Virus record (IMG/VR): IMGVR_UViG_2654588006_000004
DNA length: 48,692 nucleotides
DNA from: a virus
Lineage: Duplodnaviria; Heunggongvirae; Uroviricota; Caudoviricetes
Strand: one strand, 5' to 3'
This document shows, in pieces, positions 640-42,684 of this stretch (its first letter is position 1; every line of letters starts with the position of its first letter). Made by a program: the position numbers and the translations under genes. Below the pieces are notes generated by a model that was given only the letters and a program-made list of their open reading frames with translations, was not told the origin of the DNA and did no database searches.

Positions 640-3600
640 TATGCGAGCCTCACAATATAGTTAAATGCGATGTTTTTGACGGTGTTTTCCGCGTTACCAG
701 CAGCGTTAACGGTGATGGTGTGTCCATGTGAGCCAATCGCAACCGAGTGCGTATGCGCACCAATACCTACAGTATGTGCATGTGCGCCAGAACTTGCTGC
801 AGTACCAGACAGCGAGTGGGTATGAGCACCTGCTGACTGTGTCTGAATACGTTGATAATACGATCTACTGGAAGAAGTCCCCGGGCTTACTTGATACTGT
901 GAATCCTTGACATAAGTGAACCCACCGCCATCATAAAATGCTAACGCAGAACCGCCGCCTCCTGGCCAACGAATACCATTACCATGAGTATGAGCACCGG
1001 CAGACCCCGTAGAGCCACTCAGACTGTGCGTATGCGCCCCGGTGTTATTCGTGGATTTAGTGCCGTAATCAAACGACGATGTGGTTTTCGTCCCCAAATC
1101 CGTACTGGATGCGCTGGCGCTGTGGGTGTGCGATTTAATGCCGTCCTGTTCCTGAGACAATACGGCACGACCACTGGCAGGTTTGCCCTTAATCGTCCAG
1201 CCACGCATATCAGGGATCACGCCTGACGGATAAGCGGCAGCAAGTTTCGGGTAGGCAGATTTGTCAAAAGTCTGCCCCTGCATCAGGGCATAACCAGACG
1301 GAACGGTATCTGATGGCCACGGGATTGGTGCGCCGACTGGGTAGCTTTCTGGTGGAAGATTTTTCGAGGTATAAACTTCTGCCCAGTCTTCCTCAAAACC
1401 ATAGCCATCTCTTGAAGAACGGTAGAACAGACCACCATTTCTGTAATGCGCCTTCATCTGCAGGGTCCGGCAACTTCCGACTCCGGTATAGAAGTTAACC
1501 AGAATATAGCTGTCGCCAGAGCGGGTGACATTATAAGCGCCTGATTCGGCATTCCAGGGAACGCCACCATCCGCATCGGCATATGTATCCGTTGCCCTTC
1601 TGGCAAAAGCAGCCACATGCGCGGCGGTTAAAGTAATATCTCTGGAACCATCAAACTCAACACCAGAAACCCGTCTTGGCGTTTGCAGCTTTGTTGCTGT
1701 TAATGCATTACCGTTCAGACTTGCGGACAGTTTGGTTCCAATAACCAGTTCGCCGGTTGCGTTATCAATAGCAAACGGTCTTAATGTATTCCAGCCACCA
1801 TAAACATCACCTTGATTGGTAAGCAGCAGGTAAGTTTTAGCGCCATCATTACGCCATAATGCACCATACTCCCCACCTATCATTCGAATCTGATTACCAC
1901 CACGCGCTACAATTTCGTCTGTGGCAAAAAGTTTTTTGCACGACAAGTTATCGTTAACGATTAACGAATGAGACTCATAAAAACCACGGCCACTCTTAAA
2001 ATCAAGGATAACGTCCGCCGCGATACATTCAGTCGCTGGATTTGTTGCCCCAAACTTATAGGTCGTATCATTAACAACGAGATCAGCACCAGGTGCGGAT
2101 ATTGACAGGCCATCTTCAATAAACGCAAAAACAGGGAAAGCAGCACCATCAACATAGAACACAGAGCGCAAATCATCGCCCTTATTACTCATCATTATTG
2201 AGTGGATGGCTCGTTCATTGTTTTGATATTGCCAGAACATTCCATAAGCATAACGCCCCCTGTCAGTCCAGCCACCAGGCATAACAAACCCGTTAAACTC
2301 GCAGTTATTCATCGGATCGCCTGCGGTTCGCGTTGCCGTGGTGATAATGACCCTTGATGCCAGTTCGCTTACTGAGCCAGCAGAACGCATAACAACAACA
2401 GGGTAATATCTTCCAGATATTGCACCTGCAGGAGCGTTAACCCGCACATAACGCATACCACGCTTATCAGCAAAGTCTGTTTTACTGACCGCGTTAATGT
2501 TGTTCAGGAAGCGTCCCTTATCGGGTATATCAGCGCCGTTCTGGTCTTTCTGCAGACGTTTCTCTGCATTGTCATAGGCTGATTTTACTGCCTTTGGCGT
2601 TGCCGCCAGCGTTTCAGACGAACTGTTGGTCGCACTGCTGAGCTGTACTATCCCCTTTTTCGTCGTGCTCGCATCCTCAAGCGCCACGGCGGATGCAATA
2701 TCCTCTGCCCGTTTTGCCGCTGTCTCAGCGCGCGTTGCTGCGGATTCCGCCGTACTTTTGCTCTGAGCTGCTGCCGTCGCACTGCCAGCTGCCTCTGTCG
2801 CCTTCGTGGATGCCGTCGTGGCGCTGCTCTTCGCTGCTGACGCCTGTCTGGTCGCCTCATCTTTTGAAGCAGACGCAGATGATGCCGATGACGCTGCCGA
2901 ACTGGCGGACGATGCGGCTGCCGTTTTTGAGGATTCTGCACGGGTTTCCGACGCTTTCGCATTCGTTTCGGATGTCTTCGCTGCGGAAGCAGACCTCGCT
3001 GCTGCGCTGGCCTGTACAGCGGCTTCGCCAGCCTTCGTTGTGGCTGTTGAAGCGGACGATGCAGCACTTTCTGCCGATTTTCCGGCGGCGGTGGCACTGG
3101 CTGAGGCCTGCCCGGCATTTGTTGACGCGGCGCTGGCAGATGAGGCAGCCGCTGTTTTTGAGTCTGCTGCTGCGGAGGCACTCTGTGCTGCTGCCGTCTC
3201 AGAAGACTTAGCGTTCGTCTCGGACGTTTTTGCCGCCTTCGCGGAATTTCCTGCCGCTGTTGCCGAGGAAGCTGCGCTGCTGGCGCTCGAGGCTGCGCTC
3301 GTTTCTGATGATTTTGCCGCCTCTTTTGAAGCCGACGCATCCCGGGCTGAGGTGGCAGCTTCTGACGCTTTCGTGGTCGCGGTGGATGCTGAAGTGGCTG
3401 CTGATTGTTGTGACGCTGCCGCATTCGTTTCTGACGTTTTTGCCGCAGCGGCACTGGTGGCCGCCGCGCTTTTTGAGGACTCTGCAGCGGCAGCACTTTT
3501 TGATGCTTCAGTGGCCTTTGCTGATGCCGTTCCTGCGCTGGAAGACGCTGACTGAGCCGACGAAGCGGCCTGTCCGGCTGACGTGCTGGCTGCGCGTGCT

Positions 3601-4052
3601 GAGCCTGCAGCATCAGTCGCATGGGTTGCCGCCTCACGGGCAGATGTGCCGGCATCGCCGGCTGACTTCTTCGCGGCTGCCGTGTTCTGTGCCACTGCGG
3701 ACGCGTTACGCGCCACCTCTTCCACCATCAGTTCAAAACGGCGCAGTGCCTCTGGCCGGACATCATCCTCCGTCATTGCACCGAGGAAATCATTCAGTGT
3801 GCCCGGCTTTGAGTCCTCATATACGGTGATAATCCCGGCGTGTGACGGCGGGAATCCCTCCACCAACAGACTGACGCTGTACTGACCATACTCGACGTCC
3901 ATTGTGTAACGCCCGGCTTCATCCGGGTTTTCTGAGGCCACTGTGTTCACCACCACCGTGGTGCTGTTGCGCCTGGCCTTTAGCTGAATGGTGCAGTTTT
4001 GTATCGGCTTACCTGCGCCATCTTTCAGTACACCTGAAATCCGTACTGCCAT
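639..4052 (-). CDS. stfR: Side tail fibre protein (Stf)
   Basis: 1137-aa ORF; N-terminus [38 protein letters not shown] closely matches the recalled lambda Stf N-terminus; long Ala/Ser-rich repeat core; His-rich C-terminal receptor-binding region. Confidence 0.9.
2650..3650 (-). repeat. Low-complexity Ala/Ser/Thr-rich repeat region inside stf
   Basis: Protein shows reiterated [10 protein letters not shown] / KTSETNA units; compositional bias leaves two other frames open (Arg-rich 2648-3655 minus, Ala/Asp-rich 2806-3555 plus). Confidence 0.7.
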
Positions 4053-4116
4053 ATTCCCCCCACAAAAAAGCCCGCCTGAACCGGCGGGCTGTCATAACAC
4101 TGTGTTACCTGGCTAA

Positions 4117-4716
4117 TCAGAATTTATAACCGACACCCACGATGAAACTGTTGGTACGCCAGTCACCGCTGCCGGAGCCTTCATAAGCGACGTCAACGGC
4201 CACGGATTCGGTCGGGTTAAACTGCACGCCAGCTCCCCACGCCAGAGACGTGTTGCTGTGGCGACCGTCATCACTTCCGGTCAGCACATCGTGCGTTTTC
4301 CCCTTGTTGTCAGTTACGCGGATATAATCCCCGGAGAAAGTCGACACACGGCTGTAAGCCATACCCGCCATCGCATACGCGCTGAACCATTCATTCACGC
4401 GCACAGACGGCCCCGCCATCACGCTGAACCAGCGATTACGCACGGAATCCTCATGCCAGCGGGTATCGCTGTAATGCGTTTTTTGCTCATCTTCAGCGTT
4501 GGCATAACTGAATGACGTAATCAGCCCCAGCGTGTCCGTAAACTCATAACGGTATTTCACGTTAATCCCGTTCAGATTTTCGCTGCCGGGAGCGTTCGTA
4601 CGGGCATGAAGATACCCTGCGCTCAGTGTGGCCTGCTGCTCAGACGCCCATGCAGGCGCACCGGATACGGCCAGACAGATGGCTGCGGACAAAATGGCTG
4701 CACAAACTTTACGCAT
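4117..4716 (-). CDS. lom: Lom-like outer membrane protein (Ail/Lom family)
   Basis: 199-aa ORF with signal peptide (AICLAVSGAPAWA) and C-terminal beta-barrel ending GVGYKF; located between J and stf as in lambda. Intact here. Confidence 0.9.
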   Translation of the reverse strand: MRKVCAAILSAAICLAVSGAPAWASEQQATLSAGYLHARTNAPGSENLNGINVKYRYEFTDTLGLITSFSYANAEDEQKTHYSDTRWHEDSVRNRWFSVMAGPSVRVNEWFSAYAMAGMAYSRVSTFSGDYIRVTDNKGKTHDVLTGSDDGRHSNTSLAWGAGVQFNPTESVAVDVAYEGSGSGDWRTNSFIVGVGYKF

Positions 4717-4783
4717 AATTACCTCTCGCTTTTCTGCAATAAAAAAGGCGCCATTTCTGGCGCCCGTATATGGGTTATAAAAT

Positions 4784-7700
4784 TCAGCTGATACTGATGC
4801 CTGCGGTGGCTTTCTTCATCACCACAACCAGCAAATCGCTGATACTTGCTGTGGGATACCAGTCATTTACCAGCCATGCTGACACCGAAAACTCCAGCGT
4901 CATGTGGCCGTGACCAGCTGGCATATCAATAACACCACTGTAAATCAGCGTATTATCCAGCGCGGTACGGTTATAAATTTCAGCACCATTTTTCTTCACT
5001 ATCAGGCGGCATGAGGAGTAAATATCAGTATGCTCTCTCTCATGTTTAGCACCGCTGAATGCCACCGCCGGAATAACAATCTGCCGGTCAAACGGCTGAT
5101 CGTCATAAATCCTGACGGTAATGGTCCCTGATGGCCACCGCTCCGGTGCCCGGGAGTCCCGCGGGAAAGCCTTACCCACTGTTTTGACAATATCGCCTTC
5201 AATCTGGTTGGCTGACAGTTTCCCTTTAATCTGACAGTTCTCATTTATCGTAACGTTGTTGAGCGTCCCGGCGTTCGCATTCACACTGCCACTGATATCT
5301 GCATTTTTAGCGGTCAGCTTTCCGTCCGGTGTCATGGAAAATGCAGGAGGATTACCGCCGCTGGTAATGGTGGGAGCCGTCAGATATTTCAGGAACACTT
5401 CATTCATGAATATCTGATCACCCTGACCAACAAACATCGGTTTTGTGTTGCCATTTGCAGGATTAATCATCGCAATCCTGTCTGCCGCCAGCAGCACCTG
5501 ACTCTGCATGCCGTCGGGGGTGTTCTCAATACCGACACCGATACCCGCAATATAAAGGCGTCCGTCCTGCATCTGCTGCAGCTTCACAGCCCACATGCTG
5601 TTCAGGTTATTATTTGTATCAACCTGAACCTTCTGTATCTGCTGAATTGCCGCACTCTGGTCTTCCAGTTTCTTATTGACGGTCTGCGTGATTTCATTGC
5701 TGACATCCGTAATGGACGTCCTGATTTCAGCCAGGTCAGGCGCAAGCTGACCGTTATCAATCTGCGTCCACAGCTCCTGAGCCAGATGGGTTTTCCCTAT
5801 CTCGCCTTTGAAAAAATCCAGATAACCGGATGCATCATCACTCGGCTGACCAACAGCCTCCACGAATGCCGATTTGCCAACGGTGTTCACACTGCGGATA
5901 TAAAAGTAATAATCATGGCCCGGTTTGATATTGATACTGGCGGCTATCCAGTACAGCGCCGTGCCAAGATAGCGTGCTGTGGTTTCAACCTGCCTGATAT
6001 CCGCAATCCGCTTTTCCGAGAACCAGAACTCAAACTGTACCGTCGGATCATAAACCGCAAGATGCGGCGTGGCGGTTATCTGAAAATAGCCCGGCGTCAG
6101 CTCAATCCGCGACGGCGCTGCCGGTGCGGCAATCCGGAACGATACCGACGCCGGATCGCCCTGCTGCCCCCACGCATTTACTGCCCGGACTGTCAGCCTG
6201 TAGTTCCCCAGCGCCAGTTGTGTGAAGCGGTAAGTGGTTTCCGTCGTCCGGGCCGTGCTGACCAGCCGCTCACTGCCGTCATCCGCTGTTACGGTCAGAC
6301 GGAGCAGGAAGCTCACGCCCTTCACCACCTTCGGCGTGTCCCAGCGCGCCAGCACCTGATATTCCCCGCTGTCTGCGGTGACTTCGGCAGTCAGGTGCTG
6401 CACCGCTGGCGGCGTGACACCATTCACCGTGCCGCTCTGGTCGCCGTCAAAGTGCGCCCCGTTATCCACGATGGCCTCTTTTTCCGGTACATGCTGCACG
6501 GCGGTGATGGCATACGTGCCGTCGTCGTTCTCACGGATACTCACGCAGCGGAACAGGCGCTGGCGCAGCGTCGGCAGCTTCAGCCCCCACACGCTGTATT
6601 CAGCAACACCGTCAGGAACACGGCTCACTTTCACCTTCACGCCGTCGGTGACGGACTGGACCTCCACGCTGACCGGATTGCCACTTCCGTCAACCAGGCT
6701 TATCAGCGTGGTACCGGAGGATGGCAGCGTGATTTCACGGTCGAGCGTCAGCGTCCGGGTCTGGCTGTTCACCGCCAGCACGCGCCCGCCGGTGCTGATA
6801 CCGGCATAGTCATCATCGCAGATTTCAATGACATCGCCCGGTACATGGCGAAGCCCTTCAGCACCCACGCTGAAGTCCACGGTCTGCGTTTCCAGCAGCT
6901 CCGTTTTAATCAGCCACAGCCCGGCGCGGTGTGCCTGCCCCCGGCTGGTACAGCCAAAGGCATCCATCTTCGTGACGTTACGACCGTAACGGGCAATGGC
7001 CTGCGTATCCTCCACAAGCTCTGTCGCCGTCTCCCAGCCGTTGTTCGGGTCAATCCAGTTCACCTCAACGGCATTATGGCGGTCCTTCAGGGCGCTGAAG
7101 CTGTAGCGGAACGGCGCGCCATCATCCGGCATCACCACATTACTGCGGTTATAGGTCCACACCTTATCTGATGGTCGGTCCTGCACGAACGTCAGCGTCT
7201 GCCCGTTCCATACCGGCATACAGCGCATCGCCGAGCAGAAATCACTGAGAACATCCCACACCTTACGCTGTGTGGTCAGCCAGGCATTACAGGTGATGCG
7301 CGGCTCCGTGCCGCCAAAACCGTCCGGCACCGACTGGTCGCAACACTGGCCGATGACATACAGCGCCCATTTATCCACATCTGCCGCACCAAGACGTTTA
7401 CCCATGCCGTAGCGCGGGTGGGTCAGCATATCCCACAGACACCAGGCCATGTTGTTGCTGTATGCTGGCTTAAACGTTCCGTCCCAGATACCGCTGTATT
7501 GCCGCGTCTGCGGGTTATAGTTCGACGGCACCTGCAGAATGCGTCCGCGAAGATGATAATTACGGCTCACCTGCTGGCTGCCGAACTGCTCCGAGTCCAC
7601 CTGCACGCCGACCAGTGCCGTGTTCGGGTAGCACTGTTTCACATCGATGATTTCGGTGTATGACGACCAGAGCGTTTTGTTCTGCAGCTGGTCTGTGGTG

Positions 7701-29615: not shown

Positions 29616-29831
29616 TTACTCTCCCCGTGCAGCCTTACGCTTATCTTCTTTAATCTTGAAATAAAGATTTGTCAGATACGTCAACAGGCCAAACACCAGA
29701 CTACCCAGCACACCTATTGCTGCCCACTGTGAGGGCGTGACTTTATCGAGCAACTGTAAAAACCAGTAGCCAGCACTGCCTGCGGAGGCGCCATAGGCAA
29801 TGCCTGTTGAAATTTTGTCCATGGATTTCAT
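29616..29831 (-). CDS. Class II holin / pinholin, phage 21 S21-like, with dual-start motif
   Basis: From [26 protein letters not shown]... (71 aa) the sequence closely matches the recalled S21; Met-Lys-Ser-Met dual start preserved; GGAGGTGAGG SD upstream of 29831. Confidence 0.8.
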
Positions 29832-36700: not shown

Positions 36701-36758
36701 ATAGGATCATTCCTTTTTGAGGTGGTCATTATATTCCCTATCTATTTTCCTGGCAATA

Positions 36759-39585: not shown

Positions 39586-40008
39586 TTAATGAACAATGAC
39601 AGAATCGTCGGAAGAACCGCCGCCGCTGAAATGCGCTTTCCGGTAAACGGCTTGGACTGCATCATCATGCGCATCAATTGCCGTACTTAACGCTTCCTGC
39701 GCCGCCAGTAATGCACGGCGTTCCAGGGTATCGAAGATGCAGAGTCGGTGACGCAGCTCGCGCGGAAGGATTGCCAGAATTGCTGGGATCAGCTTCTGAA
39801 TTTTTTCTCTTTGCGTTTTCGTTTCACCTTTCAACCAACGGTGATAGATATTCTGCTGATTGTTCCAGTCCTTGCCTGGAACCAGGGGCAATTCGCCGCC
39901 CCCCTGGCGCAGATATTCTTCAGTAATTGCATTGGCTACCCATGCCTGCCCTTTTTCGGCTGCTAGGGCAAACAACACTGATTCGATGTGCTCATGCTTG
40001 ATTTTCAT
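39586..40008 (-). CDS. ydaT: YdaT (CII-like regulator / toxic protein)
   Basis: 140 aa; matches recalled Rac YdaT; follows ydaS. Confidence 0.85.
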   Translation of the reverse strand: MKIKHEHIESVLFALAAEKGQAWVANAITEEYLRQGGGELPLVPGKDWNNQQNIYHRWLKGETKTQREKIQKLIPAILAILPRELRHRLCIFDTLERRALLAAQEALSTAIDAHDDAVQAVYRKAHFSGGGSSDDSVIVH

Positions 40009-40030
40009 GAATCATTTGCCTCTTGATGTT

Positions 40031-40327
40031 TCAGGTATGATCAAATGAGGATTTGTTACTGTCATTTAGTTGCTTCACTGACATATTCTGCGAACAACAT
40101 GCCGAACGTCGTAAATATGACCAGTCAATATCAGGACGAAGTTCTTCGCACAGAACCTCACCTCTTGTTGCACGTTCAATTGCTGGACATCTCTCGGCAG
40201 GCAATTGACGTACCCCTTTGATCCATTGATTTACGCTTGGAGGTGATACACCTAAAAGCCTAGCCATTGCTGATTGCCCACCGACAACAGCACAAGCTTG
40301 CTTGAATGAATAGTTCTCTTTTTTCAT
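40031..40327 (-). CDS. ydaS: YdaS (Cro-like HTH protein)
   Basis: 98 aa; HTH QSAMARLLGVSPPSVNQWIKG; divergent from racR. Confidence 0.85.
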   Translation of the reverse strand: MKKENYSFKQACAVVGGQSAMARLLGVSPPSVNQWIKGVRQLPAERCPAIERATRGEVLCEELRPDIDWSYLRRSACCSQNMSVKQLNDSNKSSFDHT

Positions 40328-40353
40328 CGAATGAACTCCAAAAACACACAGAA

Positions 40354-40383
40354 ATATTAGGCGACGCCTAACGCAATTGTCAA
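40354..40383 (-). promoter_or_regulatory. PR-like promoter for ydaS (consensus -35 TTGACA, 18-bp spacer, -10 TAATAT)
   Basis: Minus strand reads TTGACA-attgcgttaggcgtcgcc-TAATAT; the spacer contains the palindrome TTAGGCGACGCCTAA. Confidence 0.5.
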
Positions 40384-40437
40384 TAGGCTGTGCCTAATGC
40401 GGTAAGGGTAGGGATTGCCTAATGTAATGCGCATAGG
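40357..40437. promoter_or_regulatory. Operator cluster between ydaS and racR (TAGGC/GCCTA palindromes)
   Basis: TTAGGCG-A-CGCCTAA (40357-40371), TAGGC-TGT-GCCTA (40384-40396), imperfect GCCTAAT...CATAGG (40417-40437). Confidence 0.55.
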
Positions 40438-40450
40438 AGAATATTAAGCA

Positions 40451-40927
40451 ATGCTTAGTGGTAAAGACTTAGGCCGAGCGATAGAGCAGGCCATTAACAA
40501 AAAAATCGCATCGGGATCCGTCAAATCAAAGGCGGAGGTCGCACGCCACTTCAAAGTCCAACCACCATCAATTTATGACTGGATTAAGAAAGGCTCTATA
40601 AGTAAAGATAAACTTCCAGAATTATGGCGTTTCTTTTCTGATGTTGTTGGTCCAGAGCATTGGGGGCTTAACGAATACCCCATACCAACCCCCACCAATT
40701 CAGATACAAAAAGTGAACTTTTAGATATAAACAACCTTTATCAAGCAGCCTCTGATGAAATAAGAGCGATTGTAGCTTTCCTGTTATCTGGAAATGCTAC
40801 AGAACCAGATTGGGTTGACCACGATGTTCGCGCCTATATAGCAGCGATGGAAATGAAAGTGGGTAAGTATCTGAAAGCTCTAGAATCTGAACGGAAAAGC
40901 CAGAACATCACAAAAACTGGAACTTAA
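40451..40927 (+). CDS. racR: Prophage repressor RacR
   Basis: 158 aa; matches recalled RacR; GGAG SD 8 nt upstream. Confidence 0.9.
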   Translation: MLSGKDLGRAIEQAINKKIASGSVKSKAEVARHFKVQPPSIYDWIKKGSISKDKLPELWRFFSDVVGPEHWGLNEYPIPTPTNSDTKSELLDINNLYQAASDEIRAIVAFLLSGNATEPDWVDHDVRAYIAAMEMKVGKYLKALESERKSQNITKTGT

Positions 40928-41000
40928 ACTTATATGGTCTGACGGAAAACTCCTGGATTCCGTTATTTAACCCCCCCATCACTTTCTGCTGTCGCCATCA

Positions 41001-41063
41001 CCTATTAGGTTACGCTCAAAACATTAGGCATAGCCTATTGACAATCAATTAGGCATTACCTAT
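41001..41063. promoter_or_regulatory. Second operator cluster downstream of racR (OL-like)
   Basis: CCTA-T-TAGG (41001-41009), TAGGC-ATA-GCCTA (41025-41037), TTAGGCATTACCTA (41049-41062); same half-site as the racR-ydaS operators. Confidence 0.5.
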
Positions 41064-41066
41064 AGT
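41038..41066 (+). promoter_or_regulatory. PL-like promoter (TTGACA, 17-bp spacer, TATAGT) driving ydaG-ydaF and the early-left operon
   Basis: Read directly; -35 abuts one operator palindrome and the spacer/-10 overlap another. Confidence 0.5.
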
Positions 41067-41235
41067 TCCAGCATACCACCCACCCCGCCCCACAGAACGC
41101 CGGGCAATACTTCGAGTTACCAGGCAGTGGTAAGGGGTTAAGTAGCCAGCCCGAGGCGTATGAACATGACGGCGGGATTCAAATTTTGCAGTGCAGCAGT
41201 TAGTTCCGCCACCCGGCGTTAAGGGGAGAGATAAG

Positions 41236-41370
41236 ATGGTGCATTACGAAGTAGTTCAGTATTTGATGGATTGTTGCGGTATCACTTACAACCAGGCTGT
41301 GCAGGCTTTACGCAGCAACGACTGGGATCTCTGGCAGGCAGAAGTCGCTATACGTAGCAACAAGATGTGA
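41236..41370 (+). CDS. ydaG: Small protein YdaG
   Basis: 44-aa ORF MVHYEVVQYLMDCCGITYNQAVQALRSNDWDLWQAEVAIRSNKM (below the track cutoff); AAGGGGAG SD; matches recalled Rac YdaG. Confidence 0.7.
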   Translation: MVHYEVVQYLMDCCGITYNQAVQALRSNDWDLWQAEVAIRSNKM

Positions 41371-41380
41371 GATTCGCAAA

Positions 41381-41536
41381 ATGCAAAAAATCGACCTCGG
41401 CAACAACGAATCCCTGGTGTGCGGCGTGTTCCCCAACCAGGATGGAACGTTCACTGCCATGACGTATACCAAAAGCAAAACATTTAAAACCGAAACTGGT
41501 GCGCGCCGATGGTTGGAGAAGCACACAGTAAGCTAA
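41381..41536 (+). CDS. ydaF: Small protein YdaF
   Basis: 51-aa ORF MQKIDLGNNESLVCGVFPNQDGTFTAMTYTKSKTFKTETGARRWLEKHTVS translated by hand; 10 nt after ydaG. Confidence 0.7.
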   Translation: MQKIDLGNNESLVCGVFPNQDGTFTAMTYTKSKTFKTETGARRWLEKHTVS

Positions 41537-42021
41537 CGATTAAAACGTCTACTCCTGCTGTTCCAGAATAACTTCATAAAATGGGAGTATTTTTCGGTGA
41601 CGAGATAATAAGAACAGTTTGCGCTATCACTCTGATGTTGAATGATGCCCTTCCGTTCTAATTTTTTCATAACCGGGTTACGGCAAGGAGAAGTGATAAT
41701 AAGATTTCCTGTTTTAAGGAAATCTTTAAATACAGCGATTTCTTTCTCAGATAAACGAAGCAATACTCGTTGCTCTGGTAGTAATGAATAATGCTTTTGA
41801 ATATGTGCTCGCAATCTTGAGAAGGAAATGGCGACCACGAAAGAAAAGGCAAAAACGATAATCTGAAAGAGCCAAGGTATTTCAGTATAAGCATTGAATG
41901 CGGCAGTAAACTCTTTCGGTATCAGCCAGAGAGTGAGACCAAAAATGATAATCGTATACATAAGTCTTTCGAGTGGCTCGTTAGCAAAAAGTTTCAACAA
42001 TGGAGTAAATACATCCAACAT
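41533..42021 (-). CDS. sieB: Superinfection exclusion protein SieB
   Basis: 162 aa from MLDVFTPLLKLFANEPLERLMYTIIIFGLTLWLIP...; membrane protein; track ORF extends upstream to 42144. Confidence 0.85.
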   Translation of the reverse strand: MLDVFTPLLKLFANEPLERLMYTIIIFGLTLWLIPKEFTAAFNAYTEIPWLFQIIVFAFSFVVAISFSRLRAHIQKHYSLLPEQRVLLRLSEKEIAVFKDFLKTGNLIITSPCRNPVMKKLERKGIIQHQSDSANCSYYLVTEKYSHFMKLFWNSRSRRFNR

Positions 42022-42462
42022 ATCAATAACTCTCAACTGTAAGGGTATTGAAATGTTAACACAAGCTCTCGCTGTAGGGGTATAGCCGAGACCACCGAAG
42101 CCCGGAGGTGGTGAAATAAAACCGGGCACAACACGAAGGCGCATTTCCGATATCCATAAAGAGTCGGTCTTGTCTGTTAAATTTAAATGGTGGGAGTGCG
42201 CCTCCGGTTGTAAATAACGACATTGCTGTGTGTAGTCCTGGCGGCATCAGTTTTTTTCTTGAAGTTCGGCTGATGTCCGCCCTTTTTAAAGTGAATTTTG
42301 TGATGCGGTGAATGCGGCTAAGCGCACGTGGCACAGTTAAAAGTCATGTTAGTCCTTATTGGTTTGGGTGGGAAAGCCGACTGTAATTGTTAACTGGTTG
42401 CAGTCACCTGGAGGCACCAGGCACCGCATCAACAAAGTTCATTTGTAAAAATGGAGATAATT

Positions 42463-42684
42463 ATGATTGCACATCACTTCGGAACTGATGAAATACCACG
42501 TCAGTGTGTGACTCCTGGCGATTATGTTCTTCATGAAGGCCGGACATATATTGCCTCGGCAAACAATATTAAAAAGCGAAAACTATATATTCGTAACCTG
42601 ACCACAAAAACATGCATTACTGACCGCATGATTAAAGTCTTCCTCGGTCGTGATGGTTTACCTGTAAAGGCGGAGTCATGGTGA
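42463..42684 (+). CDS. kilR: Cell-division inhibitor KilR
   Basis: 73 aa [35 protein letters not shown]... matches recalled KilR; GGAG SD. Confidence 0.9.

Follow-up and report, generated by a model that had tools for sequence, protein, structure and literature searches.

The immunity region of the Rac prophage

The stretch of DNA analysed here, IMG/VR record IMGVR_UViG_2654588006_000004 (48,692 bp, hereafter the window; open reading frames, ORFs, were taken from a program-made list and from RefSeq annotation), is the Rac prophage of E. coli. Over 39900-41600 it is identical (100%) to E. coli chromosomes annotated with ydaT, ydaS, racR, a "phage protein" (ydaG), ydaF and sieB, and this segment constitutes the immunity region of this cryptic lambdoid prophage. 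The repressor gene racR is flanked there, as in lambdoid immunity regions, by two outward-facing promoters, PydaS on the minus strand and a predicted PL-type promoter (hereafter PL) on the plus strand. It is also flanked by copies of one operator consensus, four upstream of the gene (the OR side) and two downstream of it (the OL side), which overlap the -35/-10 region of both lytic promoters (Table 1). We consider it quite likely that racR belongs to a classical lambdoid immunity cassette, in which RacR bound to paired 17-bp operators blocks both PydaS and the predicted PL.

Paired operators bracket a known and a predicted lytic promoter

When one mismatch is allowed, the 48,692 bp contain six copies of the motif TAGGC-N3-GCCTA, against 0.76 expected from dinucleotide shuffles, and none of 100 shuffles reached six. 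Five of the six matches flank racR, three upstream and two downstream, in agreement with the preliminary description of this DNA, which had noted TAGGC/GCCTA palindromes together with a promoter on each side of the gene. The remaining match (TAGGCAATGCCTG at 29794, one mismatch) lies inside a 90-aa minus-strand ORF and fits the chance expectation. Forty sites from eight loci define a 17-bp operator consensus, ATTAGGC-N3-GCCTAAT, with an N3 spacer in every one of them; the variable half-site spacing of 1 or 3 bp that had been proposed was an artefact of parsing, as TTAGGCG-A-CGCCTAA is nothing other than TAGGC-GAC-GCCTA.

On the upstream side the three sites that had been described (a, b and c) were all found, and a fourth, site d over the racR ATG, had been overlooked. 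The comparison of loci with RacR relatives, which took one genome per species plus one O157:H7 strain, showed site b to be present in each of the nine non-redundant loci, at -66/-67 relative to the racR ATG, and site a (at -93) was seen only in the Escherichia loci. From its position, site c likely overlaps the -35 of the leaderless racR promoter, and site d is likely an autoregulatory site. As for the "related copies" mentioned downstream of racR, the one at 41050-41062 (one mismatch) stands as OL site 2, and the one at 41006-41018 is doubtful only, having three mismatches, lying off the 25-bp register and not being kept outside Escherichia. A candidate ending in ACCTA at 40992-41004 is likewise doubtful, on the same three grounds.

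Both sides share a common register: an operator, TTGACA, 6-7 bp, a second operator, and a -10 that begins in the last two nucleotides of that second operator. The two operators of each pair, 25-26 bp apart, thus bracket a lytic promoter, and an identical 14-mer (AGCCTATTGACAAT) is common to PR and PL. A promoter scan recovered both promoters with the hexamers and spacers given in the preliminary description, PL being the best plus-strand sigma-70 match in the window. Matches at 11/12 number two on the two strands of the window, against about one expected; the promoter score by itself is weak evidence, and it is the operator register and its conservation that constitute the evidence. The sole other 11/12 match (36756..36728, minus strand; TTGCCA, 17 bp, TATAAT) lies downstream of the ydaS-ydaW genes.

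Table 1. Features of the racR region, with positions in the window
Feature	Position	Strand	Description and basis
PydaS (PR-type promoter)	40383..40354	-	TTGACA 40383..40378, 18 bp, TAATAT 40359..40354; 10/12 match
OR site a	40358-40370	.	TAGGCGACGCCTA, 0 mismatches; over PydaS spacer and first 2 nt of -10
OR site b	40384-40396	.	TAGGCTGTGCCTA, 0 mismatches; abuts PydaS -35
OR site c	40409-40421	.	TAGGGATTGCCTA, 1 mismatch; kept at -41/-42 in all loci
PracR3 -10 (GAGAAT), leaderless racR promoter, PRM analogue	40437-40442	+	Sequence; assignment and mutagenesis in PMC9638921
OR site d	40445-40457	.	TAAGCAATGCTTA, 2 symmetric mismatches; centred on racR ATG; kept at -6 in all loci
OL site 1	41025-41037	.	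TAGGCATAGCCTA, 0 mismatches; abuts PL -35
OL site 2	41050-41062	.	TAGGCATTACCTA, 1 mismatch; over PL spacer and first 2 nt of -10
Third OL copy (doubtful)	41006-41018	.	TAGGTTACGCTCA, 3 mismatches; 19 bp from OL site 1, off 25-bp register
PL-type promoter (predicted)	41038-41066	+	TTGACA 41038-41043, 17 bp, TATAGT 41061-41066; 11/12 match
PL leader transcript (predicted)	41073-41235	+	Homology to heteroimmune Rac/Qin-type phages begins right after the -10
racR	40451-40927	+	ORF, RefSeq; repressor, N-terminal helix-turn-helix domain and non-S24 C-terminal oligomerisation domain
ydaS	40031-40327	-	ORF, RefSeq; Pfam YdaS_toxin E 2.6e-31, P22_Cro E 3.4e-09; Cro-like regulator, heads the rightward (PR-type) operon
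ydaG	41236-41370	+	ORF; first gene of leftward operon
ydaF	41381-41536	+	ORF; DUF1391 E 1.9e-28, same family as Qin ydfA
sieB	41533-42144	-	ORF

The OR side in published work

Two short K-12 sequences given in the literature recur unchanged in the window (one, ACTAAGCATTGCTTAATATTCTC, as its reverse complement at 40437-40459, the other, AAAAACACACA, at 40340-40350), and therefore results published for K-12 can be mapped onto it. Three GCCTAA/TTAGGC repeats have been described in the 123-bp ydaS-racR spacer (Krishnamurthi et al. 2017, PMC5700373), where electrophoretic mobility shift assays gave three RacR-DNA complexes and chromatin immunoprecipitation with quantitative PCR showed enrichment (PMC5700373). 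A 2022 study in Nucleic Acids Research (PMC9638921) mapped a single ydaS start site by primer extension, assigned TTGACA/TAATAT to it and found that mutating the -10 abolishes PydaS. The same study mapped three racR promoters, including the leaderless one with the -10 GAGAAT, and obtained a RacR DNase I footprint at OR with the consensus (T/A)TAGGC-n3-GCCTA(T/A). In this footprint the region of site a is protected first, at the lowest RacR concentration, and one operator, 'O3', lies over the racR start codon and corresponds to our site d (PMC9638921). YdaS was reported to autorepress PydaS, to be a weaker repressor than RacR and to exert no repression on racR (PMC9638921). Work from 2023 counted four upstream inverted repeats and found RacR to be an octamer by size-exclusion chromatography (PMC11014345). 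The ydaS side of the lambda-like arrangement is thus already established experimentally, by binding, by the PydaS start site and by -10 mutagenesis, and the operator model for this half, put forward as new in the preliminary description, had been published before (PMC5700373, PMC9638921).

For the downstream half, we came across neither RacR sites nor a promoter after racR in the searchable Rac/RacR literature, including a September 2026 preprint using CRISPR interference (CRISPRi) and Jobling's letter. No genome-wide RacR binding data (chromatin immunoprecipitation followed by exonuclease treatment or sequencing, systematic evolution of ligands by exponential enrichment, or DNA affinity purification sequencing) were found in the literature search. 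The OL/PL half is new as far as the literature is searchable.

The OL/PL cassette is conserved beside RacR-type repressors

In Mixta, Morganella, Proteus, E. ruysiae and O157, whose repressors are 57-99% identical, the downstream pair is spaced by exactly 25 bp, TTGAC follows directly on site 1 and the -10 (TAATAT or TATAGT) starts in the last two bases of site 2, in surroundings that cannot be aligned among these loci. The cassette is retained beside RacR-type repressors from Enterobacterales to Burkholderiales. Across seven divergent loci the half-sites of site 1 are invariant (2.0 bits per position), the -35 reaches 1.9 bits and site 2 1.7-1.9 bits, with the N3 spacers and the 6-bp linker at about 1.0 bits and the flanks at 0.55-0.67 bits per position. 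The viral-contig scans, which returned mainly redundant copies from Rac or Proteus, served as a source of natural variants of the cassette: the 26 distinct variants show changes at the N3 spacers, at the linker and at the base that opens the right half of site 2, and all of them keep the PL -35 and -10.

The rightward promoter outside Escherichia occupies the same cassette, between the operators at -41 and -66 (L005-L010; ggtcaa, that is TTGACC on the other strand). In Escherichia there is an extra operator at -93 and the promoter uses the -67/-93 pair, with one extra spacer base. The -35 between the -41 and -66 operators has decayed in Rac (gtaagg) and a new TTGACA accompanies the fourth operator at -93, so that the comparison suggests a duplication of the rightward promoter-operator cassette of Rac or its displacement by one unit.

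This pattern of conservation bears on a quite different explanation of the downstream palindromes, namely that they form hairpins which end transcripts of racR (or of the antisense sieB), the promoter match being a coincidence of a quality that chance would yield about once per window. A terminator scan did flag 41037..41025 and 40372..40356 as weak terminator-like sequences on the minus strand. As intrinsic terminators, however, the palindromes gave only such weak minus-strand matches of 5-7 bp; the stems that they could form have 5 bp and loops of 3 nt, and no T-run follows on the racR strand. What is kept across loci is the exact bases of TAGGC/GCCTA rather than pairing through compensatory changes, and the 25-bp spacing of the pair is fixed around a conserved TTGAC and -10. 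Moreover, upstream copies of the same sequence are footprinted by RacR (PMC9638921), and it is Rho that reportedly terminates racR transcripts (PMC4150792). We regard the hairpin explanation as extremely improbable.

Operator type follows the N-terminal domain of the repressor

Natural domain swaps link the operators to the N-terminal domain. In Achromobacter (L009, 2501-3598) and Pigmentiphaga (L010, 2501-3406) the first 77 residues of the repressor are 74-75% identical to RacR and the C-terminal half is a Peptidase_S24 domain (E 1.2e-13 and 3.7e-15, respectively). These loci have the same operators at -65, -41 and -6 and the same OR/OL layout, including TTGACA and a perfect downstream pair at 25-bp spacing that lies 74 bp past the stop codon or, with accessory genes in between, at a distance of 1.2 kb. 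The converse is seen in the viral contig L181 (about 3470-4330), the domain-swap control provided by the contig scans, where the same S24 domain is joined to a different N-terminal domain and AAGCAATGCTT-type repeats are found instead of RacR-type sites. Therefore the operator type follows the N-terminal domain of the repressor.

RacR itself gave no Pfam domain above the cut-off, no S24 match and no PDB sequence match. It does not carry the C-terminal S24 peptidase of autocleavable CI/LexA-type repressors, and for this reason its induction by RecA-mediated cleavage is not expected.

The same sites could in principle serve the second regulator of the region. YdaS matches P22_Cro and HTH_3, its residues 9-37 are 41% identical to RacR residues 18-46 across the helix-turn-helix, and apart from the operators and the promoter no other conserved motif was found in the OL alignment; because of these three observations, YdaS probably shares the RacR operators. 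A stronger version would be that the OL sites are used chiefly by the Cro-like YdaS and not by RacR, which could draw on the fact that PaaR2 and YdaS both repress PL933P in prophage CP-933P (PMC8630535). We hold this stronger version to be very unlikely: the OL sites match the OR sites footprinted by RacR, operator type tracks the N-terminal domain of the repressor, and the YdaS of Rac is the weaker repressor and leaves racR unrepressed (PMC9638921). Joint use by RacR and YdaS is likelier than use by YdaS alone.

The cassette is exchanged as a unit, with its boundary near the predicted PL start

The Rac-like prophage of E. coli L73 (L102) matches the window at 92.8% identity as far as 40014 and at 99.7% from 41078 onwards. 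The segment between, 40015-41077, with ydaS, OR, racR and OL/PL, is replaced en bloc (L102 616-1488) by a different cro-repressor pair with palindromes of its own. Operators and promoters are thus exchanged together with the repressor and cro genes as one cassette, and the right-hand breakpoint (41077/41078) is no more than about 5 nt from where PL is predicted to start.

A similar boundary emerges from phages Evi, Tritos, pPE4 and 640R1 and from two E. coli prophages, all with other repressors. Their alignment with Rac sets in immediately past the -10; the -35 column is common as well, and the operator positions diverge. Each of the heteroimmune phages has palindromes of its own at OR and at OL. 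Within Evi, 640R1 and AR0081, OL and OR have 8-mers in common; at that word length none were found for pPE4 or Tritos. By this alignment the Rac PL stands where heteroimmune Qin-like phages have their early-left promoter.

The homology beyond the boundary covers a stretch of about 155 nt from the predicted PL start to ydaG (41069-41235), which opens with a C-rich tract (CCACCCACCCCGCCCCAC) and is about 85-99% conserved. On the basis of this alignment, PL transcription would start near 41073. The leader follows immediately on unrelated repressor genes in phages Evi, Tritos, pPE4 and 640R1. Matches of 80-90% identity were also found in over 2,000 records of E. coli genomes, and in the five that were sampled the leader is unannotated. 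No Rfam match was obtained for it, and an nhmmer profile of the leader found no match in the PL-nun or PR regions of HK022 and no similarity to putL. RNAalifold, on seven nearly identical sequences, returned a covariation term of +0.92 (net unfavourable) and few compensatory pairs; the close similarity of the sequences accounts for the weak covariation. The leader could be a Rho-loading or anti-termination element, or the carrier of a small ORF; a possible small ORF within it begins with an ATG at 41160.

Expression of the leftward genes

All genes from PL to intR lie on the plus strand, sieB excepted: after sieB follow kilR, racC, recE, recT, xisR and intR, reaching the window end, and the terminator scan found no strong plus-strand intrinsic terminator between PL and intR. 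Between sieB and kilR there are two sub-threshold Rfam matches on the plus strand, DicF at 42227-42282 (39.1 bits, gathering score 48) and STnc100 at 42284-42470 (35.5 bits, gathering score 47). With these and with ydaF (DUF1391, the ydfA family), the layout of the Rac leftward operon resembles dicBp-ydfABC-dicF-dicB of Qin.

Published expression data agree with repressor control of these genes. In RNA-seq on RacR titration or depletion, ydaG, ydaF, kilR, ydaE, racC, ydaC and ralA rise 40- to 70-fold, and recET, xisR and intR are also derepressed on RacR depletion (PMC6765115, PMC11014345, bioRxiv 10.64898/2026.09.06.749655). Zygotic induction of rac recombination functions (Low 1973, as cited in Jobling's letter, PMC5917428) points on genetic grounds to control of the leftward genes by a repressor. 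The left-hand operator set is probably what silences the kil, recET and int genes.

RacR could also bind the downstream sites mainly as auxiliary operators, for looping or for blocking read-through, with the leftward genes expressed chiefly by read-through from the racR promoter when Rho termination fails, or from other promoters, instead of from PL. RacR does form octamers (PMC11014345), and a Rho-dependent terminator inside racR, trac, normally prevents kil expression according to Sen's group, who ascribed the toxicity of kil in rho and nusG mutants to failed termination of racR-promoter transcripts at trac (PMC4150792). Yet the -35 and the -10, the latter in two forms (TAATAT and TATAGT), are as conserved as the operators in distant loci, and the heteroimmune phages carry TTGAC in the same column, directly upstream of the shared leader. 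The promoters in the corresponding position, PL933P of CP-933P and dicBp of Qin, are active and repressor-controlled (PMC8630535, PMC10448788). Furthermore, read-through would have the leftward genes follow racR, but under CRISPRi they rise as racR mRNA drops 11- to 20-fold (bioRxiv 10.64898/2026.09.06.749655). A mainly auxiliary function of the downstream sites is in our judgement unlikely.

Discussion

Taken together, the OL side and its targets are indicated by conservation, by the cassette boundary, by positional homology and by the published derepression of the leftward genes, and they complete the lambda-like arrangement whose OR side was known. The most likely mechanism is that RacR dimers recognise the 17-bp palindrome and that paired operators occlude both lytic promoters. 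Since the pairs bracket each of them, bound RacR would block RNA polymerase on both sides. PydaS drives ydaS-ydaT rightward, and PL would drive ydaG, ydaF, kilR, racC, recET, xisR and intR leftward. The weaker upstream operators, over the racR -35 and the start codon, would let RacR limit its own leaderless promoter, matching the published order of the footprints. Here RacR is assumed to occupy OL and PL to start near the boundary described above; the site pairs may also be bound cooperatively, to which their centre spacing of 25-26 bp would be suited. In the repressed state, transcripts from the racR promoter reportedly stop at the Rho-dependent terminator inside racR and would otherwise reach kil (PMC4150792), which fits the lack of a convincing intrinsic terminator after racR in the terminator scan. 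Because of this terminator, read-through would be a second, minor route to leftward expression.

Several points weigh against this mechanism. OL site 2 is imperfect, and OL has two good sites where lambda has three. A Klebsiella locus (L007) has no downstream pair within 2.5 kb of its racR homologue, probably because the leftward operon is missing there. We found no RacR-binding or start-site data for OL/PL in the accessible literature, and older print papers may describe the promoter. When RacR is lost, the leftward genes may be switched on in part indirectly, by way of YdaS, YdaT or excision, or by read-through of racR transcripts past trac (PMC4150792). Finally, the published model has the RacR octamer sitting as four dimers on the four upstream repeats, with no loop (PMC11014345). 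In the Klebsiella locus just mentioned (Klebsiella sp. R390, 2977-5429) the three upstream operators are kept and a 391-aa ORF follows almost directly after the racR homologue.

More tentatively, as something possible rather than probable, the octamer may act as a bridge in which the PydaS pair and the PL pair each bind two of its dimers and the intervening 0.64 kb or so with racR forms a loop, and the PL leader, common to thousands of heteroimmune Rac/Qin-type prophages, may be a cis-acting RNA for transcript elongation or Rho termination.

Lambda and Rac have much in common. In both, two outward early promoters flank the repressor gene, a Cro-like gene is divergent from it, the repressor mRNA is leaderless and the repressor is octameric. 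Both also have 17-bp, partly palindromic operators on both sides that overlap the -35 and -10, with adjacent operators about 2.3-2.4 helical turns apart (23-24 bp in lambda, 25-26 bp in Rac). Rac differs from lambda, beyond its two good OL sites, in that the operator sequence is unrelated, OR has four sites in Escherichia and three elsewhere, and the C-terminal domain of RacR is not an S24 peptidase. Its OL follows directly on racR, about 0.64 kb from OR as against 2.3 kb in lambda, and it is without an N gene or nut site, having the conserved leader in that position.

Closer parallels are found among other prophages. Like Rac, CP-933P of O157:H7 has Cro and CII analogues of the YdaS/YdaT type and an octameric repressor, with operators at OR and at a PL933P with OL1-3 whose -35/-10 resemble those of its PR (PMC8630535). 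Unlike Rac, it has the repressor PaaR2, GTTTAGTAA-type operator repeats and a toxin-antitoxin pair after the repressor gene (PMC8630535); its PL is experimentally validated, whereas the experiments on Rac cover the OR side only. With respect to the DicA/DicC system of Qin (PMC10448788), the Rac PL occupies the position of dicBp, before a homologous leader and a DUF1391 gene (ydfA/ydaF), and a DicF-like RNA and a division inhibitor (dicB/kilR) then follow in both. Rac differs from Qin in repressor and operator specificity and in the sieB gene lying antisense inside its operon. With regard to induction, RacR has been grouped with short repressors without S24, such as the non-cleavable, antirepressor-inactivated GfoR/GtgR of the Gifsy type (PMC3121763). 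Induction of Rac is likewise expected to be independent of SOS-triggered cleavage; the operator sequences of the two are not shared as far as checked. We know of no antirepressor for Rac.

The layout is what would be expected of a lambdoid prophage and half of it was published, so the gain is incremental. RacR is nevertheless essential in E. coli K-12, where it silences toxic prophage genes, and the literature treats it as a repressor of ydaS-ydaT only. An OL pair over a strong leftward promoter would provide a direct mechanism for the induction of kilR, recET, xisR and intR on RacR loss, and would also explain the excision of Rac after RacR depletion and the zygotic induction of rac recombination functions. 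The OL-OR loop offers a testable alternative to the published reading of the RacR octamer and, if true, would mean that long-range cooperativity arose in a repressor that oligomerises through a domain not related to that of lambda CI.

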